The position numbers and the translations under genes were made by a program. A stretch of 64,000 nucleotides of DNA from Euryarchaeota archaeon UBA19 (GTDB lineage Archaea; Thermoplasmatota; Poseidoniia; Poseidoniales; Thalassarchaeaceae). The stretch spans positions 7,784 to 71,783 of the forward strand of contig DAPQ01000060.1 in NCBI GenBank assembly GCA_002502175.1. Direction: 5' to 3'. Below the pieces are notes generated by a model, which had not been told where the DNA came from, ran no database searches, and saw nothing but the letters and a program-made list of their open reading frames with translations. Below, in pieces: positions 43,759 to 60,465 of the stretch; positions within the stretch are counted from its first letter, which is position 1, and each line of letters starts with the position of its first letter.

Positions 43759-45651
43759 TTATGGTTCTCCAACCTCTGCTAGGAATTCACAGCGGCAGGC
43801 AGGACACCTAGCCTTTACTGGACGTCTGTTAATTGGGATTTTTAGAGTTTGATCGCAACTAGGGCAAGATAGCAAATCATCCACTGAGCGAGCGGATATC
43901 TCTTGAGGAGTTGAAGTGGAAGGTGAATCATTTTGGGTCGCAATGTTTTCTTCTTCTGAAATTTTGTCTTCATCTTCTGACTCGATCGATTCGACCATGA
44001 ATCGAGCGGTACAAGCAGGACATTTCACGGCACCAGAATGGCTGTTCGGAATGTGCAGACGTTGGTCGCATTCGGGACACGGTATCTCTCTTTTTTCTAC
44101 TGCTGCAGACTTTTTCTTTTCCCCTCTGGCTTCTCTTAGTCGATTAAATCTTGATTTTCCTGTGTCCTCTACGCTTTCCGATACTGTTCGATATAGAACT
44201 AAAATGAACATTACAAGAACTAAACCTGTGACCGTTCCATAAATTGCGGCGACCAAATCAAATGGCAATTCTGCCTCTGCATTATTGTCGGAAAATGTTT
44301 CTATCTCCAAAAGAAGGCTTTCGGTAAGTCCACTAGTTACCCATATTATATGCACATCAACAACTTTTGAATCGGGCCACTGTTCGATGGTGAATTCACT
44401 GCTAAATGATTCACTTGGATTAATTGAAAAAGTTGGAATTGTGTCGAGTATCATGTTATCTGAATTTCGCACTACTCTTACCTCTCCTGCTAAAGTCGGA
44501 GTATTACCATTATTGGTTAAGGAGAACGGGATTTTTACACTTTCACCCACCACAGGAGCTGTGCTTACACCTTCAGAAGTAACCACAAGATCTAGTATAG
44601 GAGGAGTGAGTGTAGTCTGAATTTCAATTTCCTCTTCGGCCGTCCAAGTAACTGTATTTACTCGAATAATTAGTGCGTCTGCTGAAGGATTTCCTAGATC
44701 GAGGTTTAGTTGCCTTCGACCAGGATCCATGGTAATTAGGAAAAATTGTAAATTAGACTCAATAGTTTGATCGATTATTGCAACTTCGATTTCAACTTCC
44801 CTAGATCGGCCATCACTAAGGTAAAGAGAGAGTTCTGAACTTAGGCCATCTTCAAGATTCCAGTCCAAAGAATCAACTACTAACTGGATTGATTGAGGCT
44901 CTAAAACTTCAATCACAGTGGTACCGTTGAGTTCTCTTGCGACACCTCCATTGCTGGAATGAACCTTCCAATCTAGTTTGATTGAGCCTGAAGAAGAGGG
45001 TGAAAATGATGCGGAAACCTCCCTACTCGAACCGGGATTAATCAGTATGGCTTGGCCTTGAATAGGGTCTGACCCCTCAGGTGATATAACCAAACTAACA
45101 GATTCAGGATTCTGACCTTGATTATGGACCAATATTGAAGCGGTAAGTGAATCCCCAACATGGGCAGGCTCGCCAATAAGTGCTATTTCGGAGGAGCTAG
45201 CAGCAGTCAAGTTCAGAGGATTGGGTTCTACTAGTAAAGTAAGACTTTCACTCTGACCCGAAGAATCAATTCCGAAAATCAGATTCAAAACTCCTTCAGG
45301 CAGTGGACCGAATGAAATGTTGACTATCACAGTCGAATCTGAACCCTCAAGGAAACCAGTGAGTTCAGGAGTGGTTTGACCGTCCAATTCCATCACAAAC
45401 CACCACTCATCATGTCCAGCAGTAGTATCACTATTTGATACCTCGATGGATAATTGAATTCGGTCGCCTGCAAAAGCAGATGAATTCTCCGAAGGAAGGG
45501 ATGTTGAACCATCGATGATTGTATTATCCCAATCTGCTGAATTTTCTATACTGAATCTATCCTGGGCACTAACATTTAGCGAAATTAGGGTTACAAATAC
45601 AACAGAGGCTGTTATCACAAGCAAGTTGTGAGGACGAACGCCTGTATTCAT
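43759..45651 (-). CDS. surface protein: signal peptide, large extracellular Ig/CARDB-like region, single TM, cytoplasmic tail with two zinc ribbons
   Basis: Signal 'LVITASVVFVTLISLNVSA'. TM 'LVAAIYGTVTGLVLVMFILVLY'. Cytoplasmic 'CPECDQRLHIP...VKCPACTARF' and 'CPSCDQTLKIP...ARCPACRCEF'. Acidic linker between them. Confidence 0.45.
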   Translation of the reverse strand: MNTGVRPHNLLVITASVVFVTLISLNVSAQDRFSIENSADWDNTIIDGSTSLPSENSSAFAGDRIQLSIEVSNSDTTAGHDEWWFVMELDGQTTPELTGFLEGSDSTVIVNISFGPLPEGVLNLIFGIDSSGQSESLTLLVEPNPLNLTAASSSEIALIGEPAHVGDSLTASILVHNQGQNPESVSLVISPEGSDPIQGQAILINPGSSREVSASFSPSSSGSIKLDWKVHSSNGGVARELNGTTVIEVLEPQSIQLVVDSLDWNLEDGLSSELSLYLSDGRSREVEIEVAIIDQTIESNLQFFLITMDPGRRQLNLDLGNPSADALIIRVNTVTWTAEEEIEIQTTLTPPILDLVVTSEGVSTAPVVGESVKIPFSLTNNGNTPTLAGEVRVVRNSDNMILDTIPTFSINPSESFSSEFTIEQWPDSKVVDVHIIWVTSGLTESLLLEIETFSDNNAEAELPFDLVAAIYGTVTGLVLVMFILVLYRTVSESVEDTGKSRFNRLREARGEKKKSAAVEKREIPCPECDQRLHIPNSHSGAVKCPACTARFMVESIESEDEDKISEEENIATQNDSPSTSTPQEISARSVDDLLSCPSCDQTLKIPINRRPVKARCPACRCEFLAEVGEP

Positions 45652-46614
45652 TGTCTGACCCTCGGAGCGGGTCAGTGTATCAAGGAAACCCTAATTCAAG
45701 GTCACGTAGTGACCTTTATGATGGGCCCTAATTTCCGCCGTTTGCATATGGAGTCTGAAGGCCTGCTAGCGGTGACGCCTGACGAATTGGCGCAGGCTTT
45801 GTTAGATAGGAGGGTTTTGCTGAAGGAGCAATTACCCACTGTTATTCGTACACTCGAGGCCGAGGAACAGAACCTTGCTCCAAAGCTATCTCGTTCAGCA
45901 GATAAACACAAACAGGCAAATGAAATTGTTGCTAAGTTGAAAGTGGAACGCGACCAAGCACAAATCGCAGCCCGAAATCTGCTCCCGAAGGTAAAGGAAT
46001 ATCGGGATAAATTGGTGGAATCTGGTGGGATGGTAAACCTTGACCCAGATTGGAAAAAAGAAAAATTGTTTGAAGAATTGGATGAAATCGAAGAAAATAT
46101 CCAGACTTCGGCGTTAGATCACAAAGCTGAGAAAAAGATGATTGAACGTAGAAAAAAGTTGATTCAACAAAACGAAAAATGGCTCAAGGAAAGAAGAGAT
46201 TCAAACCCGGAAATGGCAGATTACATCGATTCTAGAAGAGAGATGTCTTACCAATTTACAATTGCCAACAAGGCTCATAGAAATATGATCAAAGCCGTGG
46301 AAAAGGCGCAACCGTTGCATGAGAAAAAAGTAGCGATGGAGGCAGAAATAAGAGACGTCAGAAGACAATTGGACAGAGCCAAAGAATTACTGTCTCAATC
46401 TGACCAAGCAATAGAACATTGGCAACGCCGATTAAAGGATGGGTATGGAGAATTAGGACTAGGATTCCCTGACCTCCTTAAAGACATGATTCAAGTCCAG
46501 GAGGGAGGAGACTCTAGTTTCGCTAAGAGGCACAAGAAAAACAAACAGAATTCAAAGAAAAATAGTGTTGAGAATGGGCGAATAAACTCCGATTCGAGGG
46601 GTGAGGAAGAATGA
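45628..46614 (+). CDS. charged coiled-coil protein (paralog family); probable start at 45721 or 45748
   Basis: Heptad-rich. Central block 'DWKKEKLFEELDEIEENIQTSALDHKAEKKMIERRKKLIQQNEKW'. Basic C-terminus 'KRHKKNKQNSKK'. Confidence 0.4.
   Translation: MRTNACIHCLTLGAGQCIKETLIQGHVVTFMMGPNFRRLHMESEGLLAVTPDELAQALLDRRVLLKEQLPTVIRTLEAEEQNLAPKLSRSADKHKQANEIVAKLKVERDQAQIAARNLLPKVKEYRDKLVESGGMVNLDPDWKKEKLFEELDEIEENIQTSALDHKAEKKMIERRKKLIQQNEKWLKERRDSNPEMADYIDSRREMSYQFTIANKAHRNMIKAVEKAQPLHEKKVAMEAEIRDVRRQLDRAKELLSQSDQAIEHWQRRLKDGYGELGLGFPDLLKDMIQVQEGGDSSFAKRHKKNKQNSKKNSVENGRINSDSRGEEE
45698..45716. promoter_or_regulatory. perfect 19-bp palindrome AAGGTCAC-GTA-GTGACCTT in divergent intergenic region (candidate metalloregulator operator)
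   Basis: Exact 8-bp inverted repeat with a 3-bp spacer. Lies between the minus-strand operon that encodes the DtxR-like regulator and the plus-strand coiled-coil genes. Confidence 0.4.
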
Positions 46615-47576
46615 GCGATGGTTTGTTCGATGATCTTGAGGAGCTACCTCATGATGAAATCGAAGAGAAGGTCAAACAATTAGACCGTGAATTACGCTCA
46701 TTAGATGAAGAATTCAACTCACTGCGTCAAGAACGAAGAAACCAAGTGGAAATTGTAAAATCGTTGAGAGGAGCATTCGATGGAATTCAAGAGGTGAATT
46801 CTGAGAGGCGAATGCTGTTGAGAGAATTTCATGAAATAAAGAAAAAGGCAGACAAGCATAGAGCATTACGAGATAGAGTCAACCTATCTATTCCGCCACC
46901 TGCTTCTGTATTAGAAGAATGGATGGCAGACACACACTCTAAGTTAACCACCATAGATAACGACCTTACAGCAGTCCCCACCATAAATAGGGAATTGGAT
47001 TCATTTCGACGATTTTTCGAATTACAAGCAGCTGTGGTACGTAAGCGTGAGGCAGAAGATGCTCATGCACAGTATGTAGTTCAAATTGAGGATTTACGAA
47101 AAGTTACATCTAAATTAGACGCAACAAAGAAGGCTGGCAAGGATGCCGCAGATTCAGCAACAGAAAATAATGAAGTTAATCCTGACAACATAACTCGTAG
47201 TGAAATTAGGAAAATGAGCAAGCGAATCAGCAGCATAGATAAGCGGTTAGACACGATTAAATCACAACGTAAGAAATTACGAAGGGAATCAGGTAGAGTC
47301 CGGTCATATCAGAAAATAACTTCAGGAAGAGGGAGAAAAATCCGTCTAACTGATGTAAAAGAGAGAGCAAGTAAAGGAGGTTCACTAAACGCCAATGAAT
47401 TATCTGCTTTACTAGATTCAGGCAGTTTGACAGGTATCACAAATGAAGCAAGCAAACCGGAGTCTACGAAATCAAACGCACCTAGGAAAGGTAGAACGGG
47501 AAAGAAAGGAATGCGAAGACTAGGTGTCACTAGAGGTGGACCAAGGAAGGGTAACTCCGCTAGTCGGAGGGAATGA
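46611..47576 (+). CDS. charged coiled-coil protein (paralog family), Arg/Lys-rich C-terminal tail
   Basis: 4-nt overlap with the upstream paralog. Heptad-rich. C-terminus 'PRKGRTGKKGMRRLGVTRGGPRKG'. Confidence 0.4.
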   Translation: MSDGLFDDLEELPHDEIEEKVKQLDRELRSLDEEFNSLRQERRNQVEIVKSLRGAFDGIQEVNSERRMLLREFHEIKKKADKHRALRDRVNLSIPPPASVLEEWMADTHSKLTTIDNDLTAVPTINRELDSFRRFFELQAAVVRKREAEDAHAQYVVQIEDLRKVTSKLDATKKAGKDAADSATENNEVNPDNITRSEIRKMSKRISSIDKRLDTIKSQRKKLRRESGRVRSYQKITSGRGRKIRLTDVKERASKGGSLNANELSALLDSGSLTGITNEASKPESTKSNAPRKGRTGKKGMRRLGVTRGGPRKGNSASRRE

Positions 47577-47642
47577 GGAAAAAAACACCTCAAATGAACT
47601 TATATGGTAAACTTAGGACGTTAATTCAAGGGGCATGATTGT

Positions 47643-48524
47643 ATGAAGATGGAAAGCGGGGAAATTCGCGGGATTCTTCAACCACTCTGTGACGATATTC
47701 AAGAACAGATATCCTACAATCGGGAAGAAAGGGACCAATGGAATTCGAAAGTCCGTAAATTACTCGACGAACGCAACGAGTTAAATCGGCAAGTTAAGGA
47801 ATTAATCACAGAGGTGCAGAATCAAAAATCTCTACGAGATGATGCAAACCAAACCGTTAGAGAATTAAAAGAAATAAGGGCTGAAAGGACTGAGGTACTA
47901 AGAGTAATTAGGACCGATTTTAGGGAGAAAATAGCCGAAAATGGCTCTCAAGAAGAAAGACAGGAGAAACACGATAAAACTCGCTCACCAGGAAGAATTA
48001 GAACAGAAATAGACCGTTTGGAAAAGCAATACAACGAAGGTCGGTTCCTTGGTAAAAAGGAAAAAGAGTTCGTCGCTAAAATGAAAAAGTTACATCAAGA
48101 ACTTAGAGAAGCTAAGGAAAAGAAATCCGATGGTGGAATAAGAGAATTAAAGATTCAACTTAGAGATGCTGAAAAGAAACAAGAAGACGCCCACAAGAAG
48201 GTGAAGCGGGCAGTAATAGGCGCTCAAGAAGCCCATGACTTGATGGCTGAATTATCGGAAGAGGTCGATAGATTACGAGAGAAGGCAAATTCAGCTCAGT
48301 CAGGAGTTACTCGGGCTAAAAGAGAAGCAGATTCTCTCCATGGAAGATACATTGTATCGTTGAGGTGTATACATTCCATGCAAGATTTACTCAAGGCTCT
48401 GGAAACTAGAGAAGGCGGTGTTACAGAGGACGACGAGCAAGTCGAAGTCGCTGATCTAATGACACGACTAATGTCTGGAGACACATTATCTACTGACGAA
48501 ATCATGGCGCTTCAGAGGAATTGA
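47643..48524 (+). CDS. charged coiled-coil protein (paralog family)
   Basis: Central block 'GRFLGKKEKEFVAKMKKLHQELREAKEKK' and heptad-rich flanks. 293 aa. Confidence 0.4.
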   Translation: MKMESGEIRGILQPLCDDIQEQISYNREERDQWNSKVRKLLDERNELNRQVKELITEVQNQKSLRDDANQTVRELKEIRAERTEVLRVIRTDFREKIAENGSQEERQEKHDKTRSPGRIRTEIDRLEKQYNEGRFLGKKEKEFVAKMKKLHQELREAKEKKSDGGIRELKIQLRDAEKKQEDAHKKVKRAVIGAQEAHDLMAELSEEVDRLREKANSAQSGVTRAKREADSLHGRYIVSLRCIHSMQDLLKALETREGGVTEDDEQVEVADLMTRLMSGDTLSTDEIMALQRN

Positions 48525-49455
48525 TTTCGTAAGTTCGACCATTCCTAGAATGAAGAAGCTCAATTCCACCCTCATGGTCAAGTAGCCAGCCCGGAATAGC
48601 AGAAGGAATTTCTTCTAGTATCGCCCCATCTGAATCAAATGACCACCTTTCTAACATAGTGCTTCTGACCGAACTTCCTTCAATGGCTTCTTCTTGTTTT
48701 TGTCTTCGGGACTCTAAAATCCCTACTAACATAACTCTCAAATCGGTATCTGTCAACCATTTATTTTCTTTGGCAATAATTAACCGTAGGTTTGGAGGGG
48801 TATTCAGAACTTGATCTGAATCATGGGCCTCCAAACGATTAGCCCATGGGTCTTCTAATACACTCCAATTACCCTCTTCCCTCTCTCCATCAGGACTGAC
48901 TAATGCACCATTTATGTTCCATATACGAGATTGTAGAAGTATTGGTTTAGCATCAACATATTCCATTCCTCTTTGTATACACCATTCATCAAGGTCAATT
49001 ATTGGAGGCAAAATGACTAACTTATTCGGAAGTTTTTCTTCAATAATTTCTTCAGTGATTTCTTCATTAGGGGTTATTTGAGGAATTTTGGCTTCTAAAT
49101 CTCCGCGTAAAACTGCTTCTCCAATCCAACGGCTTAAGACATCAGGATTCCAAAGTTCAATTTTCAATTTTGAAGACAATATTTCCTTAGCCTGGTCTTC
49201 AAATTCTCTCTCACTCAAAATCCAATGAGGGCCACTAGGAGCATCTACAAGCCATCTTTCAGCTTCCGCGACACTTACTGGAATAATCGCTTTAGGCACA
49301 TGCCAAACATGCACTGAAGAACCTGTATCCTCTTCTAATTCAGGAATTTTCTCAGCTACTCCAAGGCACCGGAAACCAACAGTTTCGACTAGATTACTAG
49401 CCTCGGATAATCTAACTCCGCGAAGATTGAGTAAATCCCCCACGGTATTATCCAT
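48502..49455 (-). CDS. hypothetical acidic protein in the position normally occupied by nusA downstream of rpl30e
   Basis: 317 aa with no KH (GxxG) motifs. Follows rpl30e on the same strand after an 85-nt gap. Confidence 0.35.
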   Translation of the reverse strand: MDNTVGDLLNLRGVRLSEASNLVETVGFRCLGVAEKIPELEEDTGSSVHVWHVPKAIIPVSVAEAERWLVDAPSGPHWILSEREFEDQAKEILSSKLKIELWNPDVLSRWIGEAVLRGDLEAKIPQITPNEEITEEIIEEKLPNKLVILPPIIDLDEWCIQRGMEYVDAKPILLQSRIWNINGALVSPDGEREEGNWSVLEDPWANRLEAHDSDQVLNTPPNLRLIIAKENKWLTDTDLRVMLVGILESRRQKQEEAIEGSSVRSTMLERWSFDSDGAILEEIPSAIPGWLLDHEGGIELLHSRNGRTYEINSSEAP

Positions 49456-49540: not shown

Positions 49541-49858
49541 TCAGAGGTTTGTACTCAGAGTTAGAAGGTCTGACTGACCTGGGTCTATAACACATAATGC
49601 ACTAACTGGGAATGGTTTGGCACAAGCCGCACCCAACTGCCTGTTTACCATCGTAACTCTATGAACTGGGATATCAGGATGGCTAGTTGTCAAACTGGAT
49701 ATGTAATCCTCCGGACAGTTTGCCGCCACCAATACCAATCTGGCATCTCCTTTATTGCATGCACTTGTCGTTTGGCGTTGGCCAAATAGTACATTTCCTG
49801 TGCTAATTCCTTGTTTTAGTTGTCTTGCTAGATCCATTAGAATTCCTCCTTCAAGCAT
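49541..49858 (-). CDS. rpl30e: 50S ribosomal protein L30e
   Basis: '[13 protein letters not shown]'-type motif ('[16 protein letters not shown]'). Position downstream of rpoA'' is canonical. Confidence 0.8.
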
Positions 49859-51431
49859 CTGCCTCTTCAGGTATGTAAAACAAATCTACACTACCTGTTC
49901 CAAGGGCTACTGGTTGACCAACGATAATATTCTCAGTTACACCTCTTAGGTGGTCTCTTTCACCAATTACACCAGCACGAAGTAAGTGGTTAACAGAGAC
50001 TTCGAACGCTGATCTTGCTAGAATACTGTGTTTCGTACCGCTAACTCCGTGTCGTCCAATCGCACGAACTTCACCTTCGCTAGTCATCACGTCAGCCACA
50101 GTGATTAGGTGCCTAGTGTCGACCTCCAAACCTGCCCCTTCAAGAGTATCTTTCATCTCATTGACGATTGCTTGCCTTGCCGCTTCAACTCCTAGATATT
50201 GGTAAATTTCATTGATATTGTTTGTGTAAGTTCTGCCTCTGTCTACACCTGCAAATTCACTGACCTTTGCTAGATTTGAGCCAATTGTGGCGATGTAATA
50301 CTCGCCGGTATCCTTGTTTGGACCCTGAACATTTGCTCGAATAATATCTGGCAATCCCTTTAATCTAAGTTTCTTGACTTTGTCCTCAAGTTGCAGTAAT
50401 GCGGTGTATGTTGGAGGATCATTTGCCAATGTTGCTAGATCATCTTCTTTGGTAACTCCAGGAATTACCTTGAGGACCTTAGGCTTGTCTTCATTATCAG
50501 CCTGAATGTATAGTCGAAGAGCTCTTTGCAGTTTATCTCTAACCTCAGCACCAGTCATTTTCTTCAAACGTAGGTTTGAGGCGTTTAAATCTAAATTAAG
50601 GTGCCTTTGAGCGACATCCACATCGATGGAAGCGATGTCTCTAGTCGTAGTTGTTTCAATTGAGGCCGCAATCGCTTGAACCTTCTTTTCATTGGTTCGC
50701 AGAGGCTTACCTTTGGAATCATTCTCATCGAGATAAACAAGCATTGTCGGTGTTTTTGGCACCTTCCTTGCATCAACAATTTCGATTACTCTCGGAAGAC
50801 CTTGGGTTACGTTAACCGTAGCTACACCAGCATAGTGGAAAGTACGCATTGTCATCTGAGTCCCAGGCTCTCCAATTGATTGAGCAGTGGTTATCCCTAC
50901 AGCCTCGTGTGGATCGACTCTTGACATTTCCATGCCGGATGCGGCACAAGTTACGACCTTGCGTGCTTCCGCTGCGGTAAGTTTCTTCTTTCCTCTAGAT
51001 AGCAAGCCATTGACTAAATCATTGATTGTCTTCGGTGTAATTCGAATGTTTTCCTTTGCGGCTGCGTCTGAAAGACTGGTGAACATTGGGTTCTCAATAT
51101 CTAAATCACGGTGGATTTGACGCATCTTGTCTTCCGAGTCATATTCTTGCAGAGGAAGAACGCTCTTCTTTCTGCGTCTTGTAGCAACACGGCGACGGAT
51201 CAAAGTCTTCTCCGCTGCCTTTTCCTTTTGAGCCGCTTTGGTAGAGCCTTGAATGACTTCAGATATATTCTGTGCCATTCCAGAATCGGTGGCGCAAATT
51301 TGTGCGATTTCTCCAGCGGTAAGCACCTTCACGTCATCCCACTTGCGGTCATCTGCAAGGCGATGTGCATATTCCTCTGCGATTCCAAGATCCATCAACT
51401 TCTTTTTGGTTGCACTCTTGACTACCATCAC
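49851..51431 (-). CDS. rpoA2: DNA-directed RNA polymerase subunit A'' with ~110-aa N-terminal (HhH)2-like extension plus Arg-rich linker
   Basis: A'' core blocks '[25 protein letters not shown]', '[10 protein letters not shown]'. The N-terminus '[26 protein letters not shown]...' is paralogous to the RpoH N-terminus. Linker '[14 protein letters not shown]'. Confidence 0.85.
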
Positions 51432-54400
51432 TCATCACCTCCTAGAGCATCATCGAGAACCTTGGTGATATCAAATGGCATACCCTTTCGACTTCTAGCT
51501 GGGTCAATTCCATCTTCACCATACTCGAATTGGATAATCCTATCGGCAGTATTTCTAACTGAGCCGTTTCCATCTTCAGACACCTTGAGGTCGTCCATTG
51601 CGTTGATTAGACGGCGTTGCATATATCCTGACTTAGAGGTACGAACCGCGGTATCGACTAGGGACTCTCGTCCAGATACTGATAGCATGAAGAACTCAGT
51701 TGGCTCAAGCCCTTGCTTAAACGAAGAAGAGACGAATCCCTTTTCTTCCGCTCCTTTTACTCCACGAGGGAAGTGGGAAAGTACTCTGTCTTGGTAACCT
51801 CGCTCTAGACGCTTTCCACGGACCTTTGGTTGTCCTATCGAACCTGCCATCATCGCTAGGTTATCCATTGAACCACGAGCTCCCGATGTTGCCATGATTA
51901 CAGCAGAGTTATCCTCTCCAAGGTATGACTTAGCAACATTACCAGATTCTGCTTTAGCGGAATCTAGAATTTGCAGTATGTTCTCTTCAAGCGTCTCGAT
52001 TGGAGTTCTTCCCGGTCGAGTCTCATATCCACGTCCATTTTTGCCAAACTTTGCCAATTCTGCGTCTACTTCGTCACTAGCTCGGACGTTGATTTCAGAG
52101 ATTTCCTTAATCGCCGCGAGGGGTAAGTCTTCGTCATCGATTCCAGTAGTGAATCCAAGAGATGTACAAATTGCGATTGTCATCTTTGTCATTCTGTTTA
52201 GGAATTCAGCGCCACGGTTAGTACCGTGAGTCTGAACTACCGCATCAAGTAATCTACCATCTTCTGCACCAATTCCTCGCTTGTCGATAGTACCACTGAC
52301 AATACCAGTAGAAGTAACATTGACTTCGTCTCCACTTCTACTCGTGTAGTTTAATTTGAATCCTGCAGGGACAATTAGGCTGAGGAGATCAGCACCTCTG
52401 TAACCTACCATACCATCCTTAGTTGTGACTTCTTCTGGCATCTCTCCATCCCAGCCTACTGAACCCAATACTTCCATAGCCAGTTCCTTAGGTAGAACTC
52501 TGTCACCATGAGTTAGAAGATAAGCTCCTGAAATATGGTCATGTATTCCTCCAATAACCGAACCACCGTATCTTGGAGTAATGATGTGTTCCTGAACTCT
52601 CATCAAAATCTTCGCTTCGGCCCTTGCCTCTTCAGATTGTATGACGTGTAGATTCATTTCATCTCCGTCGAAATCAGCATTGTAGGGTGTACAATCTGCT
52701 AGATTGAATCGGAATGTCTTGCCTTGCATAACACGAATTTCGTGAACCAGCATAGACATTCTGTGAAGTGAAGGCTGCCGATTGAAGATTGCTACGTCCC
52801 CGTCGATAAGATGTCTTTCAACAATTACACCAGGTCGCGGGTTACCGTCCCTATCGTAAGTTGAAAGTCTGTCTTCAACTTCAGTTCGGTATACATTACC
52901 GTGCTCGTCTTCCACCGCAGGACTGCCACAATGAGGGCAGTACACTTCAAGGTGCTCTGGGAAATATTCGTCAGGGTTGTTCTGCTCCCATACCCATCGA
53001 TTATGGATAATTGCTCGAGGGTCGTCCTCAGCTAGTTGACGACCATTTTCGTCTTCACCTCGTAGGTTGGAAATTGTTGTGTCAAGATCTACTGACCAAA
53101 CATCCTCGAGGTCACCCAGTTCATTCCTTCGCATCTGCTTCATTAGTTCAAGCCCAGGAAGGAAGTTTGGTGCAGGGAGTACTGTGTTGAGGTCTGGCCG
53201 ATATCCATCATAGGGCTCTTCGTCGCTTCCGCAATGACAATCTGGATTCAAACAACGGAATCCAGCCCAGATGAATTTTGTCCTATCAGTGATTCTTACT
53301 CTGAAACTATCTCCTCTGATAATGTAGTTAACACCAGGATGGACATCCGGCCCACGCATAATCATCCTTCGTAATTGTTCTCGGTTCCTGCTAGTTGCAC
53401 GGATTGGAACTGTCAATTCCTTGGCTGTTTGAACTGGAACACCAACCTCGTTAATTCCAAGATTTGGATCTGGGCTGATTACAGTACGAGCACAGAAGTT
53501 AACTCGCTTTCCGGAAAGATTGCTTCGGAATCTTCCTTCCTTACCCTTGAGGCGTTGTGAAAGAGTCTTCAGAGGCCTTCCAGAGCGGTGCCTTGCTGGT
53601 GGAATACCGCTGGTCTGATTATCGAAATATGTTGTAACGTGGTATTGCAATAATTCCCAGAGATCTTCAACAATTAATTGCGGTGCTCCAGCGTCACGGT
53701 TTTCTCGTAGTCGTTGGTTGATTCTGAGAACGTCGACCAATTTGTGAGTGAGGTCATCTTCGGAGCGATCTCCGCTATCCAAAGTAATTGATGGACGTAC
53801 TGTTATTGGCGGCACTGGAAGAACCTTCATTATTGACCACTCAGGTCTACTAGAATTGCTATCCATTCCAAGGAATATCAAATGTTGGTCTGGAATCTTT
53901 TCTAGCCATTCTCGGATATCTCTTGCATTCAACTTGTGTTCCCCTTTGTCGGCTTTCTTCTCCTTGAAAGTAGAAGGCTTGTCTAGGAGAATCTTACCTT
54001 GTTCCGCGCCACAGTGCATGCAAATAGCACGCTTGGCGCTGGAACATTCCTTCTCGATTTCCTTGATGATTTTCTTGAATTCAGTGGAACCTACACCATG
54101 CTTTCGCATTACATCATGAACACGGTCACGGTAGTAATCTTGTTCAGACTTTTCTGGATCTAGAGGGTGAGTGTCTGCTGCACTGTGCAGAAGAATTTGG
54201 CTACATTCATTGCAAGTGCACTTCAGAGCCGTTTTGATTAGAGCGGTGAATCCGATGTGCATAACAGGTAGTTCAAGCGCGATATGCCCGAAATGACTCG
54301 GGCACTCGTCATGCTTATTTCCACACGTCTCACAGCGAATTCCTGGGTCAATGACTCCCATTTTTGGATCCATCAATCCTTGCTTGAACGCGTGTCCATC

Positions 54401-54526
54401 ATCCTTGTAAGTGTCTGCTGTCTTTACTTCAACTGCCGACATCTTTCGAATCTCATTTGGATCCATTAGGCTGAACTTGATCGAATCTATCCTCTTTGGG
54501 ATTTTTGCTACTCCACGGGCACTCAT
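51428..54526 (-). CDS. rpoA1: DNA-directed RNA polymerase subunit A' (with lineage-specific zinc-ribbon insertion)
   Basis: Zn sites '[17 protein letters not shown]', 'CTCNEC...CMHCG'. '[12 protein letters not shown]' active site. '[11 protein letters not shown]'. 1032 aa versus ~880 typical. Confidence 0.9.
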
Positions 54527-57500
54527 CTTCGGTCCTCCAATTCAAGGCGCATAGCCACTCCAAGACTCTTCATTTCGTCCAGAAGTAGCTTGAAAGCGTA
54601 GGAGGTTTGTACCGAATGAACATCTGCTCGATCGCCACAGACCGGGCAAACCGGTGTCCTCCTCTTCCAATCATAATACGCGATATGTCCACAGCCACTG
54701 TTGTTACAAACCATCAGTGGCCAACCATCCGATTCATCGAGCAGTCTATCTTTGATTACCATCGAAGCACCGTGGGCAATTAGACAATCTCTCTCCATTT
54801 CTCCGAACCTGAGACCACCTTGTCGGGCTCGTCCCTCTGTTGGCTGTCGAGTCAAGATTTGTACTCGACCACGGCTTCGGGCGTGCAGTTTGCTGCTAAC
54901 TAAGTGGTGTAGGCGCTGATAGAAAATTACTCCAGTGAAAATTTCAGCTTGGAAGGCTTCTCCGGTTTCACCGCTAATCATCGGTTCTCTTCCTGTGTGC
55001 GCGAAACCATTTCTAAGTAGTCCAGAGCGAAGTGATTCTTCCTTTTCTCCGCTAAACGCAGTACCGTCAATCTGTCGACCTTCCATGGAACCAACCTTTC
55101 CACCAATCATCTCTAAAACGTGTGCTACTGTCATTCTAGATGGAATAGCGTGAGGATTGATAATTAGGTCGGGAACGATACCGTCAACAGTGAATGGCAT
55201 ATCCTTCTCATCTACGAGTCTGCCAATTACACCCTTCTGACCGTGTCGACTTGCGAATTTATCACCTAATTCAGGTACCTTTTCTGTCCTCAAAGTGATG
55301 CGGCACAGAAGTCCGGAATCGAGTGATTCTGTAACGAATACATTGTCTACCCATCCAGATTCACCATTACGAACCATCATTGATGATTCTCGGCGTTCTT
55401 GGGCTTGTAGGAAATGTCCATGTGATTCTTCAAGGAATCTTGGAGGGCTTGTTTTTCCTACTAAGACTCCGGTATCTGCACCAACACTTGACAAATGAGT
55501 CTCTGGAGTTGGAAGACCATCCCTTTCTAAGTGGACGTAGCTCTCCCAAGACTTGAGGCCCTTTACCTCGTCAAGTCCAGTTCCTGGAACTTCAATTTGC
55601 TCTTTTTGTCCACCAGGGAATTGTTTGTTCTCGGCATTGTATGTGCGAATGAATGATGAGCGGCCCAGCGATCTCTCGACTGCTGCTCTATTCATAACCA
55701 CGGCGTCTTGCATGTTGTATCCATGATGGCTCAATATAGCCACAACGAAATTTTGTCCGCCCGGTCTTTGGGCGAAATTAGTAGTCTTCATCGAGCGTGT
55801 TCCGACAATTGATTGCTGTGGATAATGCATTACGTGCATACGGGTATCTGGCCTTAGGCGGTAGTTTGCACTTGGAAGACCAAGGCTTTGCTTCACCATT
55901 GCTGTACCACCGGTAACTCTTGGAGTAGAGTTGTGCTCAGGATAAGGCACTAGTGATGCACATACACCTAGAATTAGTTGAGGGTCTATCTCGACGTGAG
56001 TGTAGGCGAGAACTGTGTTTTGCCTCTTCTGCTTTCGTAGAATAGCCTCAAGATCCTCTTGATAGTAGTTTAGTGGTACACTGAAATTCTCTATCTCCGA
56101 ATCCCCATTAGGCATCTTTACTTCTACGCGTAGTTTTGCTTTCTTAATTTGAGAAGCACCTAGGTTTACCCATTCCACGGAAGCTGGATTTATTGGACGA
56201 CCATGCTTTGGAGAAACCATAGGTAAATCGAACGGCCGAGGTGCAATAAGGAGGTCTTCCTCTTCTTCTGCATCCACCCATTCAACTACACCGTTTGATA
56301 CTAAATCAGCAAACGTCCATTCTCCTGATTTTATCAAGTCGAGATGGTCTTTGGAAAGTACCAAATCACCGTCTTCGAGGACCAAAAGAGGCCTCAGTAT
56401 TCGACCTCTGTCAGTGTTGATGAAAATATCTCTATTTGCCCCGTCATATCGTATACTTACCTCGGGACGGATTCTTCCCTGGCGCCTTCGACGCTTGAAT
56501 TGATTAACCAACTTAGTGGCGTTTTTGTGTAATCCGAAAATGTCTCCATTAACGTGTACACGGAATCCTTCAGCCCATCCGGCAGGTGAAGAATCAACTC
56601 CTGCTTCGCTTAGGAGTTGCTTTACCTCGTTCTCATGAACTTCTTCTGAGACGTCAATCATCTGAGATGCGTTCTTGACCAAGCCACAATTCTGCCCTTC
56701 GGGCGTCTCGTTTGGACAGAGCCTACCCCATTGAGTGGGGTGCAGATCTCGAGCTTCGAAGTGAGGTTGGCTGCGAACCAAGGGGCTCGTTACTCTACGC
56801 ATGTGTGACAGAGCCGCAAGATAGGTAGTCCTGTCCAGAAGTTGACTGACACCGCTACGTCCGCCAACCCAATTTCCGGTTGCCAAAGCGTGCATTATTT
56901 TCTGAGTTAGAACATCAGGTCGCAAGCAGGCGTTGATTCTTAATTCGCGCTTTCTGTTGTGATGGCGCTCTAATTGATACTTTAGATCACGTGCAAGTTG
57001 TTGAAGGCTTACTCGGAATAGATCTTCGACTAAGTCCCCTGCTAATCTAACTCTCTTGTTAGCGTAATGGTCCTTGTCATTAGGGTCTTGGTCTGTAATT
57101 GCCATTTCAAGGACTTGGCGTACAATTCGGCCGAGGAATATTGCTTTCTTCTCTCGGTGTTCGGGGCCTGAACCAAGGTGAGGTAGTAGTTCCTTGTCCA
57201 ACAAATTCTGAATTCTCGCTTCTCGATATTCCTTCTGCTGACCAGCGGCGAATTTCTTCTCTAGCCATTGAAGGGCTTCCTCGGAAGTCTCTACGTTATA
57301 TTCTTCGTTATCTTTGACATCGTTTAGATTAGCAACAGTATACTTCATCGCTTCAGCTGGACCTGCAATTGCAGTGAAAATTTCCTTATCATTCTCCATG
57401 CCGAGAGAACGCATTAGCAGAACCACTGGAATTGGAGTTGTTCCTGCACTTGGAATCTTAACCATAAGCATACCATCACGGCGCTTTTCTATGTTCAGTG

Positions 57501-58209
57501 GCTTTCTAACTCCATCTTTTTGTGAGAAAATCTTTGCAACTTCTGTTTCATGAGCATATTTCTTATTCTTCTCCACAGTGACTCGGTTTGGCGCTAGATC
57601 TTCCATCGAGATTAGTACTCTTTCTGTACCGTTGATAATGAAATAGCCACCAGGGTCTAGAGGGTCTTCTCCTGCTCTACGTAGTAACTCAGTTAATCTC
57701 TCAGCATCCTCTGTGGAAGTGTGAGGTGATAACTTTCTATCGTCATCAGCACATAGGTGAGAGATATGGTTAGCGTGTAGATTACACTGAGCAGAACGAA
57801 CCATAATTGGGAGGTTACCAATGTGCACCCTCTCTTCTATATCCGGAGTTGGTTTGTCATCTCGGATAATTTGGAAATCTAGGTGCACTGGTGAGAAATA
57901 AGTTAGTTTCCTTAGCCTGCACTCTAATGGGGTCGCAGGATGTTCTGCGCCATTTGCTTCCCGGATTGTAGGGCGGCCAAGATGAATATTCTTCATTCTG
58001 ATGACGATCTCTTTGTCTAGAACGTCCAGTTTGATTATTCCACCGTCATCGTCTTCTACTGGCTCATCAGTTCCAATGCGAATATTTCGAACGATTTTTT
58101 CCATTCGGCTTAATTTACCGTCGGTAGATGGAATACAATCATTGTAGGATGCTAATTGGTGGTTAACCAAGCTTCTTTGCTGAAAATAACTCTCTACGAT
58201 TTCCTTCAT
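54523..58209 (-). CDS. rpoB: DNA-directed RNA polymerase subunit B (unsplit)
   Basis: 1228 aa single ORF. 'GEMERDCLIAHGA', C-terminal Zn ribbon 'CNNSGCGHIAY...CPVCG'. 4-nt overlap with rpoA1. Confidence 0.9.
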   Translation of the reverse strand: MKEIVESYFQQRSLVNHQLASYNDCIPSTDGKLSRMEKIVRNIRIGTDEPVEDDDGGIIKLDVLDKEIVIRMKNIHLGRPTIREANGAEHPATPLECRLRKLTYFSPVHLDFQIIRDDKPTPDIEERVHIGNLPIMVRSAQCNLHANHISHLCADDDRKLSPHTSTEDAERLTELLRRAGEDPLDPGGYFIINGTERVLISMEDLAPNRVTVEKNKKYAHETEVAKIFSQKDGVRKPLNIEKRRDGMLMVKIPSAGTTPIPVVLLMRSLGMENDKEIFTAIAGPAEAMKYTVANLNDVKDNEEYNVETSEEALQWLEKKFAAGQQKEYREARIQNLLDKELLPHLGSGPEHREKKAIFLGRIVRQVLEMAITDQDPNDKDHYANKRVRLAGDLVEDLFRVSLQQLARDLKYQLERHHNRKRELRINACLRPDVLTQKIMHALATGNWVGGRSGVSQLLDRTTYLAALSHMRRVTSPLVRSQPHFEARDLHPTQWGRLCPNETPEGQNCGLVKNASQMIDVSEEVHENEVKQLLSEAGVDSSPAGWAEGFRVHVNGDIFGLHKNATKLVNQFKRRRRQGRIRPEVSIRYDGANRDIFINTDRGRILRPLLVLEDGDLVLSKDHLDLIKSGEWTFADLVSNGVVEWVDAEEEEDLLIAPRPFDLPMVSPKHGRPINPASVEWVNLGASQIKKAKLRVEVKMPNGDSEIENFSVPLNYYQEDLEAILRKQKRQNTVLAYTHVEIDPQLILGVCASLVPYPEHNSTPRVTGGTAMVKQSLGLPSANYRLRPDTRMHVMHYPQQSIVGTRSMKTTNFAQRPGGQNFVVAILSHHGYNMQDAVVMNRAAVERSLGRSSFIRTYNAENKQFPGGQKEQIEVPGTGLDEVKGLKSWESYVHLERDGLPTPETHLSSVGADTGVLVGKTSPPRFLEESHGHFLQAQERRESSMMVRNGESGWVDNVFVTESLDSGLLCRITLRTEKVPELGDKFASRHGQKGVIGRLVDEKDMPFTVDGIVPDLIINPHAIPSRMTVAHVLEMIGGKVGSMEGRQIDGTAFSGEKEESLRSGLLRNGFAHTGREPMISGETGEAFQAEIFTGVIFYQRLHHLVSSKLHARSRGRVQILTRQPTEGRARQGGLRFGEMERDCLIAHGASMVIKDRLLDESDGWPLMVCNNSGCGHIAYYDWKRRTPVCPVCGDRADVHSVQTSYAFKLLLDEMKSLGVAMRLELEDRR

Positions 58210-58221
58210 CTTCTCAACTCC

Positions 58222-58809
58222 TCAAGCACTCTCCACGATTAGTCTGAATGCGGTACTTGAACCGGCAACTCGGCTATATCGAACTACTCGCACTACTCTG
58301 TTTGCAAGCCATCCAGCAGGTAAATCATCTATCTCCGACTCTACCTTTTCTTTGATAGCTTGAACGGCAGGGTCGGTAATTAGAAGCTTAGGCAATAATT
58401 CCTTTGCAATCCTAATTCCGCCTTCATTGTCAGGAACTTCTAAACCCCAATGAGACAATACTGCGGACTCTTCTTCTTGTGAGACCAATTCATGGTGAGG
58501 AACTAATATGTGATTTAGGACATTAAAGCGATCGTCACCCTGAGGGATGTCGTCTAGTTCCAATGCCTTTCTTGAAATTGTAATTCTGCCGGAACGACTG
58601 CGTCGACGAGAGGTGTTGTGCTCTCTGATAATGGACATGATATTCTCGAGTGTTGCATCGCTCATCGCTACTCCAGTCTTTTCGGAAACTTCCTCAACCG
58701 TCATTCGCTTGATTGCATCCATGTTTGCGTCGTCAGCGAGTTTGTGGGCATGTTCTGCATCTATGCCCAACTCGATTAGACGCTTTTTTGTAGAACTCTT
58801 AACTGCCAT
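58222..58809 (-). CDS. rpoH: DNA-directed RNA polymerase subunit H with ~100-aa N-terminal (HhH)2-like extension
   Basis: C-terminal '[15 protein letters not shown]...[14 protein letters not shown]...[22 protein letters not shown]' is RpoH/Rpb5-C. The N-terminal '[26 protein letters not shown]...' is paralogous to the RpoA'' N-terminus. Confidence 0.8.
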
Positions 58810-58858
58810 TTACGCCGCCCCAAAACCCAGAAAACCGTGTGCCTGAGGCTTGGTCAGG

Positions 58859-58932
58859 CGGGCCTGGAGGGATTCGAACCCCCGGCCACCGGGTTAAAAG
58901 CCCGGCGCTCTACCTGACTAAGCTACAGGCCC
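58859..58932 (-). tRNA. tRNA-Lys (anticodon UUU), CCA not encoded
   Basis: Full cloverleaf by hand: acceptor GGGCCTG/CAGGCCC. D-arm GCTT-AGTCAGGTA-GAGC. Anticodon arm CCGGG-CTTTTAA-CCCGG. T-arm GGGGG-TTCGAAT-CCCTC. Discriminator G. Confidence 0.8.
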
Positions 58933-59094: not shown

Positions 59095-60465
59095 ATGGGC
59101 ACTAGTGAAATATCCAGAGAGGTCGAATACTCCTCTTCAGATCATTCCAAGGTTCATGATTTCAAGATAAACGATAAGAATTCTATCAAGTTGATTGTGC
59201 CGCCTACTGTTTACCCACCCAGAAGAGACACTAAACTGTTGCTTAAGGGGCTGGAACGCATTAATTTGCAACCAGGAAATTTGGTCGAGATTGGATGTGG
59301 TTCAGGGGCAATTTCAATTGCCAAGGCTCTGGAAGGCTGGAATGTAACCGCCTTTGATGTAAATCCACTGGCCGTAGTTGCAACAAAAGGAAACTCGGAA
59401 GTTGCAAAAGTGAACGATAGAGTCACAGTAGAAGAGGGAGGCGTTGGGGAAGAACATTGGAAGTTACCCGATAATGCGGACTTAGTCGTATGGAATTTAC
59501 CATACCTAACCCCGGATTTAGAAAATATACTTGGGCCAATGGAAGAAGCGGCTTTAACCGATGAGAGAATTACAGGTTGGTCTGAACAATTACTCGAGCT
59601 AGCAAATGAAGAAAGTCAAAATGGAACGATATTTGTGCTTCTAATAAACTCTGATTCGAATCCAAAAAATTCACCATTAACATGGATAAGGAAAGGCTGG
59701 TCAAAAAGGTCTTTGGCAGTCGAAAGAGTTGGAGACGATACCCTAGAAGTTATAGCATTCTGGAGACCTGGGTTTGGTTCAGAACCCATCTACCTAGAAA
59801 TGACAAATTCGACCATGGATGAGGCACGAAATTTACCTAATTTTGGGTGGCAGAGAATTCGTTCTGGAGAACAGATTAGCGGGAGAGGAAGGAAAGGGGC
59901 AATTTGGCATTCAAATCAAGGTGACATGATAGCCTCTTGGAGCGTTAAATTAGAGGAATTAAATCAATTGAATCCGGGGCTATTACAAGTATCAATAGGA
60001 GCATCAATTTGTGAAGCATTAGGAGTCCAAATGAAATGGCCAAATGACTTGATTTGGCAGGGTAGAAAATGCGGCGGAATTTTACTTGAATCTAGCACAT
60101 ATGATGGAACAATTAGGATCGGTGTTGGATTAAACAAGAATGGGGGAGAAATAGAAGGTTTTTCCTATTCTGGATGGACTGAATATTTCGGGGAGATTGA
60201 CTCTAACGAGATGTTTCAAATTATTGATGCCGCAATAGGATCAATTTTGGATTCTACACCGCCAATAGATTCTATTGAAAATACATTATGGCAACAGAAA
60301 TCTTGGGCCCAATTATGTGACATTCTATCCACAGGCGTGGTAGCCAAATTTGAGGGAAGGGAAGTAAATATTGTTGGCCTTTCTAATGCTGGCAGTTTGA
60401 GAGCATATTCAGATAGTTCGGAATACGAAATATCTGATATTGATGACTTTTCCATTACTTTCTAG
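59095..60465 (+). CDS. fusion protein: N-terminal HemK/PrmC-like class I methyltransferase + C-terminal biotin--protein ligase (BirA catalytic domain)
   Basis: MTase: 'VPPTVYPPRRDTKLL', motif I 'VEIGCGSGAISIA', motif IV 'VVWNLPYL' (NPPY variant). BPL: 'GRGRKGAIWHSNQGDMIASWSV' and 'KWPNDLIWQGRKCGGILLE'. GGTGA Shine-Dalgarno-like sequence 6 nt upstream. Confidence 0.65.
   Translation: MGTSEISREVEYSSSDHSKVHDFKINDKNSIKLIVPPTVYPPRRDTKLLLKGLERINLQPGNLVEIGCGSGAISIAKALEGWNVTAFDVNPLAVVATKGNSEVAKVNDRVTVEEGGVGEEHWKLPDNADLVVWNLPYLTPDLENILGPMEEAALTDERITGWSEQLLELANEESQNGTIFVLLINSDSNPKNSPLTWIRKGWSKRSLAVERVGDDTLEVIAFWRPGFGSEPIYLEMTNSTMDEARNLPNFGWQRIRSGEQISGRGRKGAIWHSNQGDMIASWSVKLEELNQLNPGLLQVSIGASICEALGVQMKWPNDLIWQGRKCGGILLESSTYDGTIRIGVGLNKNGGEIEGFSYSGWTEYFGEIDSNEMFQIIDAAIGSILDSTPPIDSIENTLWQQKSWAQLCDILSTGVVAKFEGREVNIVGLSNAGSLRAYSDSSEYEISDIDDFSITF

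Follow-up and report, generated by a model that had tools for sequence, protein, structure and literature searches.

A shared N-terminal head on two RNA polymerase subunits of Poseidoniales and on proteins of virus-like elements

The RNA polymerase (RNAP) of the marine archaeal order Poseidoniales (Marine Group II, MGII) carries two copies of what appears to be an undescribed domain family, one at the N-terminus of RpoH and one at the N-terminus of RpoA''. Both copies were found in a stretch of 64,000 nucleotides from Euryarchaeota archaeon UBA19 (GCA_002502175.1, contig DAPQ01000060.1, positions 7,784 to 71,783 of the forward strand), called the window below. Structural modelling suggests that the two copies form flexibly tethered "arms" of the enzyme. 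A similar head leads small proteins of many other families, and the longer contigs inspected that carry their genes look like viruses or mobile elements. The shared head looks like a docking or DNA-binding handle, and it may have been copied by viruses. What is new is an accessory domain of polymerase subunits, with a potentially more interesting host-virus dimension.

RpoH is encoded by an open reading frame (ORF) of 195 amino acids (aa) at 58222..58809 on the minus strand. The first-pass annotation of the window, made by a model from the sequence, had placed about 100 additional residues before the canonical RpoH domain; the region to which it pointed, 58600-58809 (minus), encodes residues 1-70, including a basic stretch. 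Profile boundaries from Pfam and NCBIfam bear out the surplus and set it at about 93 residues, since both profiles begin only at residues 94-95. PF01191 (Rpb5_C) matches aa 95-191 over its full length (E=5.8e-13, scoring 48.8 bits where 23.5 is the cutoff; profile positions 1-73 of 73), and the 80-position RpoH model NF007129 matches aa 94-193 (E=1.9e-13, positions 4-79). Its score of 50 bits is below the NCBI equivalog cutoff of 83 because of insertions; the C-terminal part is ordinary RpoH. The subunit is therefore described here as an N-terminal module (aa 1-66, 58612..58809), a linker (aa 67-93, 58531..58611) and the RpoH/Rpb5 C-terminal assembly domain with small lineage-specific insertions (aa 94-195, 58222..58530), all on the minus strand. 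In RpoA'' (525 aa from its ATG, 49851..51428, minus), the 367-position model TIGR02389 matches only from about residue 135, and the extension is thus about 133 residues long. It consists of a module (aa 1-62, 51243..51428) and a longer linker (aa 63-133, 51030..51242), both on the minus strand.

The N-termini of RpoH and RpoA'' share 34% identity over 79 aa (BLASTP, E=5e-15), and the hidden Markov model of the module matches the RpoA'' copy with E=3.7e-30. This similarity is far above chance and argues that the two modules are paralogous. The first-pass annotation had already proposed the duplication; its estimate of roughly 20 matches in the first 30 aligned positions was slightly generous, as 18/30 residues were counted as identical. 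Searches with either module (tblastn, E<0.3) recovered only these two copies in the 64-kb window. The two extensions also share an order of four charge blocks. Helix 1 has a net charge of +3 and the rest of the module -4 in both subunits; the first part of the linker carries about +6 in RpoH and about +10 in RpoA'', and the second part about -4 in each. The duplication therefore spans the organisation of the whole extension, not the helical head only. The basic linker behind the RpoH head, noticed at first pass, is present with the quoted sequence. The module as a whole is slightly acidic, with a net charge of -1.

Both genes belong to a classical archaeal operon on the minus strand, consisting of tRNA-Lys, rpoH, a fused rpoB, rpoA', rpoA'' and a gene of the L7Ae/L30e family. 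The fused rpoB (1228 aa, 54523..58209, minus) lies directly downstream of rpoH, and rpoA' (1032 aa, 51428..54526, minus) lies between rpoB and rpoA''. The order rpoH-rpoB-rpoA'-rpoA'', with rpoH first, recurs in 60 related loci. The tRNA-Lys(UUU) gene at 58857..58932 (minus) is only 47 nt upstream of the rpoH ATG, so that no longer or alternative frame exists upstream of rpoH. At the other gene, the ATG of rpoA'' overlaps the stop codon of rpoA' (TGATG).

The extensions are conserved in the lineage. A scan of one genome per GTDB species, which was saturated by Poseidoniales, gave 584 or more confirmed places. Every one of the 80 loci returned was rpoA''; the module was present in 80/80, and in two of them it was 100% identical to the RpoA'' copy of the window. 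Where at least 7.4 kb of upstream sequence was available, the module was also found on rpoH (60/60 loci); in one further locus (L013) rpoH is apparently frameshifted. Among RpoH homologues, 779 were found, the best of them assigned to Thalassarchaeaceae (Marine Group IIb), the family of the window, and in the best 120 of these the full-length proteins are 195-203 aa long and alignable from end to end. One RpoH from Poseidoniaceae (MGIIa), with 216 aa, also carries the module. Together these data indicate that both modules occur throughout Poseidoniales.

Codon alignments of 61 rpoH and 75 rpoA'' copies were used to measure selection. Synonymous sites are saturated, with a proportion of synonymous differences (pS) of about 0.8. 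The proportion of nonsynonymous differences (pN) is 0.14 for the RpoH module, 0.19 for its canonical core and 0.20 for its linker; the corresponding values for RpoA'' are 0.11, 0.14 and 0.33. Purifying selection on both modules is therefore as strong as on the catalytic cores. Mean amino acid identity is 82% for the RpoA'' module and 73% for the RpoH linker (61 sequences), and the RpoA'' linker, with 52%, is the least conserved part of its protein. Because pN is only 0.11-0.14 at saturated synonymous sites, the extension is very probably real and translated.

These observations bear on the possibility that the extension is an annotation artefact, derived from a mis-called start or a fused upstream ORF and missing from the mature subunits. 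Some pipelines did call shorter proteins or fragments. The first codon of rpoA'' is ATG in 78/78 copies (77 loci and the window). In rpoH the first module codon is TTG or GTG, not ATG, in 18/61 genes (loci L001-L080), which explains the 205-aa RpoH calls that begin at the internal Met of MELG. The matches to the RpoA'' extension were mainly proteins of 70-220 aa, and a separate small gene was considered. This was rejected: by their sequences these proteins derive from full-length rpoA'' through truncation or frameshifts in gene calling, and full-length proteins of 523 aa exist. The reading frame is unbroken and its length conserved in all 61 rpoH and 75 rpoA'' copies, with no alternative start codon near the canonical domain boundary. 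With the neighbouring tRNA, the TGATG coupling and the selection on the module, this rules out the mis-called start, and the artefact is effectively refuted.

The fold of the module was predicted with AlphaFold2 from an alignment of 13 modules. The model contains five helices (residues 5-13, 18-25, 30-34, 38-45 and 52-65) with a mean predicted local distance difference test score (pLDDT) of 81. Two helix-hairpin-helix (HhH) units are joined by a connector helix, as in the five-helix (HhH)2 fold, and the five-helix layout of the SAM fold is present equally. Foldseek returned the same fold families with weak E-values and probabilities of about 0.9; XPF-ERCC1, FANCM-FAAP24, Scm-Sfmbt SAM and NusA-AR2/alpha C-terminal domain (alpha-CTD) structures are among the matches. 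The module is thus assigned by modelling to an (HhH)2/SAM-like fold class, within which the model cannot tell (HhH)2 from SAM because both have the five-helix architecture. In a model of full-length RpoH (mean pLDDT 56, predicted template modelling score 0.31), the module retains a pLDDT of about 80, and residues 67-110 have values of 30-43. The RpoH module is accordingly predicted to be an independent domain on a disordered tether, and a disordered linker of like build is predicted for RpoA''.

At the level of sequence families nothing matches the module significantly. Pfam searches at E<=10 with full-length RpoH and with residues 1-95 gave only Rpb5_C and chance-level matches, no HhH family appeared at E<=10 for the window sequences, and no significant Pfam match was found on RpoH or RpoA'' of the window outside Rpb5_C and Rpb1_5. 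Among the 13 module sequences, one matched HHH_5 at E=0.042, under the threshold, and one matched SAM_1 at E=0.35. The PDB sequence-profile search with the module found no match at E<=10, NCBIfam matched only the canonical parts of RpoH and RpoA'', PHROGs gave no significant family for the module, and a search of the viral folds in BFVD gave nothing significant. The accessible literature on the RNAP of MGII/Poseidoniales, on extensions of Rpo5 and on magroviruses yielded no account of either the domain or the lengthened subunits. The first-pass label "(HhH)2-like" therefore agrees with the five-helix model at the level of fold and has no significant HhH profile match behind it. The two units of the form L-x2-L-G-I-x4-A-x2-L that had been proposed fared unequally. 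The first hairpin is conserved in that form (L-x-x-L-G-I-x4-A-H-x-L) and has one Gly where HhH motifs of the classical DNA-binding kind have G-h-G (consensus h-x-x-h-x-G-h-G-x-x-x-A-x-x-h). The second, also with a single Gly, is variable (G-V/I-x or S-G-x).

The module profile was then compared with 1.84 billion cluster representatives (50%-identity clusters) at E<=1e-3, and 206 proteins were matched. Many of these are RpoH, RpoA'' or fragments of both. In addition, 64 non-RNAP proteins, here called carriers, begin with a near-identical head, and their non-module parts fall into at least 26 families; the head is displaced from the exact N-terminus in only three of the 64 (P0274, P0329 and P0353). 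The matches indicate that the module is not specific to RNAP. Almost none of the carriers has a Pfam or PHROG annotation, and for most of them no significant family emerged from Pfam, NCBIfam, PHROGs or PDB profiles. The exceptions are varied. In P0295 and P0450 the head is fused to the first cyclin fold of TFB, replacing the Zn-ribbon and B-reader; this TFB-like carrier is rare, with one close relative in 5.8 billion proteins. Another carrier combines C2H2 fingers, the head and an AAA_15/AAA_21 ATPase. Single carriers match MORN or SAP, two have a weak match to a double zinc ribbon, and the metagenomic protein P0294 has two heads in tandem.

Both subtypes of the head, the H-type (DDANMDAIK) and the A''-type (DDRKWDDVK), occur in distinct carriers. 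Over 45 aa, the heads of hosts and carriers share 60-76% identity. Identity at third codon positions of conserved residues is 0.5-0.67, level with that of rpoA'' orthologues, and the carrier heads are old copies maintained by selection. Recent copying of DNA between genes was considered and rejected, as third-position identity (0.45-0.67) does not exceed that of orthologues. Most non-RNAP carriers show strong conservation in the first hairpin only and not in the second HhH unit; most also lack the charged linker blocks.

Two groups of carriers may be described separately. Five proteins of about 215 aa from virus-like contigs (P0308, P0311, P0318, P0369 and P0419, the last at L084 10001-10648) form one head family, the C-terminus of which is GLGSLFG (GLESLFG in P0318 and P0419); an internal copy, GFRGLGSLF, is present too. 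The tail of the archaeal ribosomal stalk protein aP1 binds aEF1A and aEF2 through L103, L106, F107 and its terminal residue, G108 (PMC4267659). The GLGSLFG end resembles this tail and may be a stalk-tail mimic. The second case is P0292, a protein of 1292 aa with the head at its N-terminus (L081 1884-5762, a TARA scaffold of 7 kb), for which no Pfam, PHROG or PDB sequence match was found. Its gene lies amid tightly packed unannotated ORFs, and one member of its cluster comes from the 0.1-0.22 um size fraction.

All of the longer contigs inspected (7/7) look like viruses or mobile elements in their gene content, and carrier contigs of 20-155 kb are dense in small ORFs. The contig L084 (90 kb), of which L085 (69 kb) is a shorter copy, encodes ERCC4, PCNA, ribonucleotide reductase (RNR), endonuclease VII, 5'-3' exonuclease, a methyltransferase, UvdE and many small unannotated ORFs. 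The order ERCC4, PCNA, RNR and then carrier is conserved in L084, L088 (61 kb) and L089 (100 kb), and L088 and L089 have two head-bearing genes in tandem each. Three methyltransferases and dozens of small ORFs are found on L086 (155 kb). L090 (20 kb) encodes a full-length TFB of its own together with a helicase and a Holliday-junction endonuclease; L091 (42 kb) has mostly same-strand ORFs and a dCMP deaminase; and L082 (17 kb) contains unannotated ORFs.

In L084 (11-10648), L088 (6203-11004) and L089 (5368-10492), an ERCC4 nuclease, a small ORF, PCNA and RNR are followed by one or two head genes, and the head genes in this place differ in family among the three contigs. The position next to the replication module behaves as if it were a variable slot for head genes. 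Another kind of terminal repetition is seen in L082 (883-9688; JGI Ga0066376_10002453), which carries P0376. At least six neighbouring ORFs start with MGGDFDKS, MSGDFDKS, MSGNFDKS or MSDDFDKS, and two others end in repeats of this motif (SGFDKSDFDKSDFNKSDFDKGG, DDSGFNKS). This motif is apparently a second shared terminal tag. RNR has been reported for group B magroviruses (PMC5434244). Because RNR is present and the contig sizes of 60-100 kb fit, the RNR-bearing carrier elements in this size range may be related to that group.

Archaeal RpoH has been described as a bare Rpb5 assembly domain that has no extension at its N-terminus (PMC3906176), and no archaeal species is said to have a domain in place of the Rpb5 jaw (PMC3479171). 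The extension reported here is located on the very subunit whose N-terminus is the place of the eukaryotic Rpb5 jaw and of Rpo13 in Sulfolobales (PMC2675907, PMC3479171); the comparison with the jaw had been drawn at first pass. The RpoH of Poseidoniales is an architectural exception and not a homologue of the Rpb5 jaw: it matches Rpb5_C only, and its module is small and predicted to be all-helical. The jaw is rigidly packed, whereas the module is predicted to be tethered. A likeness in layout is found in Rpo13 of Sulfolobales and Desulfurococcales, which has a small helical unit and, behind it, a basic disordered tail, and which lies next to the N-terminus of Rpo5/RpoH. It occupies the void that the missing Rpb5 jaw leaves, and its Lys-rich C-terminal tail binds downstream double-stranded DNA (dsDNA) non-specifically (PMC2675907, PMC3479171). 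Rpo13 forms a polypeptide of its own around a helix-turn-helix core, unlike the present module, which is fused in cis through a linker of 30-70 aa and has a five-helix (HhH)2/SAM-like model; nor does Rpo13 have a second copy on Rpo1C. To our knowledge, no viral proteins that share Rpo13 have been found.

The two arms on flexible linkers also recall bacterial alpha-CTD, in function and architecture only. That domain forms the C-terminus of the alpha subunit, the equivalent of Rpo3/Rpo11, and its action is upstream of the promoter, whereas the modules are N-terminal on RpoH and RpoA''; no Pfam match of the module to RNA_pol_A_CTD was found. From known (HhH)2 domains (Topoisomerase V repeats, XPF/ERCC1, Hef, FANCM/FAAP24, the NusA acidic repeats and RuvA domain II) the module differs in its single-Gly hairpins, its acidic body and the want of a significant profile match. 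It has no sequence similarity to SAM domains, which are typically eukaryotic. The Rpb5 jaw, Rpo13 and alpha-CTD are functional analogues only and are unrelated to the module.

The interpretation tentatively favoured here, a leading one that could well be wrong, is that the arms are docking handles for a specific conserved site, analogous to Rpo13 or alpha-CTD, and that the viral heads use the same site. In Sulfolobales a positively charged groove adjoins the N-terminus of Rpo5 (PMC2675907); Rpo13 fills it, docking its helical core on Rpo5 and the clamp head and binding downstream dsDNA with its basic C-terminal tail (PMC3479171). Its authors also put forward, as a speculation, that fillers of analogous role but without orthology exist in other archaea (PMC3479171). 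The docking model is favoured because the RpoH extension, attached at the N-terminus of Rpo5, has the layout of Rpo13 in cis: its helical unit, the body of which is acidic, adjoins a basic disordered stretch. In this model the module would bind a conserved, specific site with its acidic body and with the conserved face that comprises basic helix 1, the first hairpin, H22 and D26/D27. In the case of the RpoH arm, the most plausible site would be the positively charged void between RpoH and the clamp head of RpoA', and the basic stretch next to the module would lie on the incoming dsDNA like the tail of Rpo13. Head-bearing proteins of the virus-like elements could then reach the polymerase, the DNA or a common partner through the same binding site, a case of molecular mimicry and competition.

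The distribution of the head suggests a specific partner rather than generic DNA binding, because it is found on 206 clusters and 26 carrier families with its sequence, including charged surface residues, maintained. The acidic body of the module and its degenerate hairpins point in the same direction, as does the one family in which a TFB-like protein has the head where its polymerase-binding part would be. A further step is possible, if on balance doubtful: viruses of Marine Group II may have copied the docking handle of the polymerase, so that about two dozen small-protein families occupy its site, attach to RNAP, and displace the arms or redirect the enzyme. The TFB-like carrier without the normal polymerase-binding ribbon would be counted among such mimics.

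Several points weigh against docking and mimicry. The docking site is drawn from other archaeal structures, and the RpoH crevice would have room for only one of the two arms. The best structural match of the module is a DNA-binding (HhH)2 domain, and its most conserved face, the Lys-rich helix 1 with the first hairpin, is also what a backbone binder would keep. On the viral side, the virus-like label of the carrier contigs derives from gene content alone, and in the contigs inspected no capsid or terminase gene was found within 10 kb of the carriers. Two pattern scans of IMG/VR gave no match; nor did searches of INPHARED (tblastn/megablast) with the module, a 20-kb carrier locus, the PCNA-like gene and an 824-aa gene.

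The last of the structural points leads to the downstream-DNA clamp, which the first-pass annotation had put forward. Here both (HhH)2 domains would bind the dsDNA backbone non-specifically through their hairpins and hold the entering DNA together with the basic linkers, and the viral proteins would be other DNA binders of the same domain family. The charge of helix 1, the strongly basic linkers and the location of the RpoH N-terminus at the DNA entry side, where the Rpb5 jaw and Rpo13 act on downstream DNA (PMC3479171), are in keeping with a clamp, and the first hairpin (L-x-x-L-G-I-x4-A-x-x-L) is the most conserved element in RNAP and viral copies alike. However, the domain without helix 1 is acidic (about -4; -1 for the whole), the hairpins have a single Gly where GhG is usual, no HhH profile matches significantly, and the second HhH unit is not conserved in most carriers. 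Domains of this fold that bind DNA non-specifically usually show great sequence divergence, yet host and viral copies, even at their charged surface residues, have kept 60-76% identity in spite of saturated synonymous sites. A jaw grafted onto two subunits is too narrow a reading, because the head leads at least 26 other families and the longer contigs examined look like viruses or mobile elements; the clamp itself is considered rather unlikely, though well worth keeping in view.

An intramolecular staple is improbable. The modules of RpoH and RpoA'', two subunits whose Pol II counterparts belong to the "shelf" module, would pair with each other as in XPF-ERCC1 or SAM-SAM heterodimers, tie the shelf/jaw subunits together and help assembly or rigidity, and viral heads would intercalate through a heterodimer of this kind. 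The presence of just two paralogous copies in each enzyme, of two conserved subtypes, would suit this arrangement, as would the tandem heads of P0294 and a fold class known for obligate heterodimers (XPF-ERCC1, FANCM-FAAP24, Scm-Sfmbt SAM and NusA-AR2/alpha-CTD are among the fold matches). Covariation is not evident, however: the H-type differs between Poseidoniaceae and Thalassarchaeaceae, and the A''-type is almost invariant. Long disordered linkers would also be odd for a structural staple.

Just as little credence is given to a tag for co-localisation or assembly, in which the head and the charged disordered blocks would self-associate into a polymer or condensate and concentrate RNAP and viral proteins at the nucleoid or at viral factories. 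Such a tag would agree with the blocks of opposite charge in both linkers and with the N-terminal position of the head in almost all of the 26 otherwise unrelated carrier families. Against it, the charged blocks are missing from most carriers, the choice of RpoH and RpoA'' is left unexplained, and there is no evidence for oligomerisation.

Other features were recorded around the polymerase genes. RpoA' contains an insertion of about 145 aa (residues 422-566, about 52826-53263 of the window, minus), which holds CLNPDCHC ... CPHC, a possible zinc ribbon. It immediately precedes the conserved NRQPSLH motif and leaves Pfam Rpb1 domain 2 in two separate stretches. The site is presumably the dock region where TFB binds, and the insertion would be a second lineage-specific elaboration of the Poseidoniales polymerase. 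After the L7Ae/L30e-family gene lies an ORF of 317 aa without a Pfam match (48502-49455, minus); in archaeal RNAP operons this position is usually occupied by nusA. Three consecutive Lys/Glu-rich ORFs that look like coiled coils (328, 321 and 293 aa; 45628-48524, plus) face the polymerase operon, and the last of them matches DUF7121. Directly upstream of the tRNA-Lys/rpoH region, a single ORF of 456 aa (59095-60465, plus) combines an N-terminal methyltransferase of the PrmA/MTS type with a biotin/lipoate protein ligase domain.

With an apparently undescribed domain family tethered to both RpoH and RpoA'', Poseidoniales are an exception to the textbook view of archaeal RpoH. The arms may represent a fourth, independent way to decorate the DNA-entry side of the enzyme, after the Rpb5 jaw, Rpo13 and the insertion in the beta' subunit of Thermus, and would give archaea their first parallel to the two-arm design of bacterial alpha-CTD. 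The head sequence also provides a marker that links virus-like elements to Poseidoniales hosts. Viral interference with archaeal transcription becomes a testable hypothesis by means of recombinant proteins, even though the hosts are uncultured. If the mimicry is true, it would mean that host takeover proceeds by imitation of a polymerase appendage in abundant, still uncultured archaea of the ocean.

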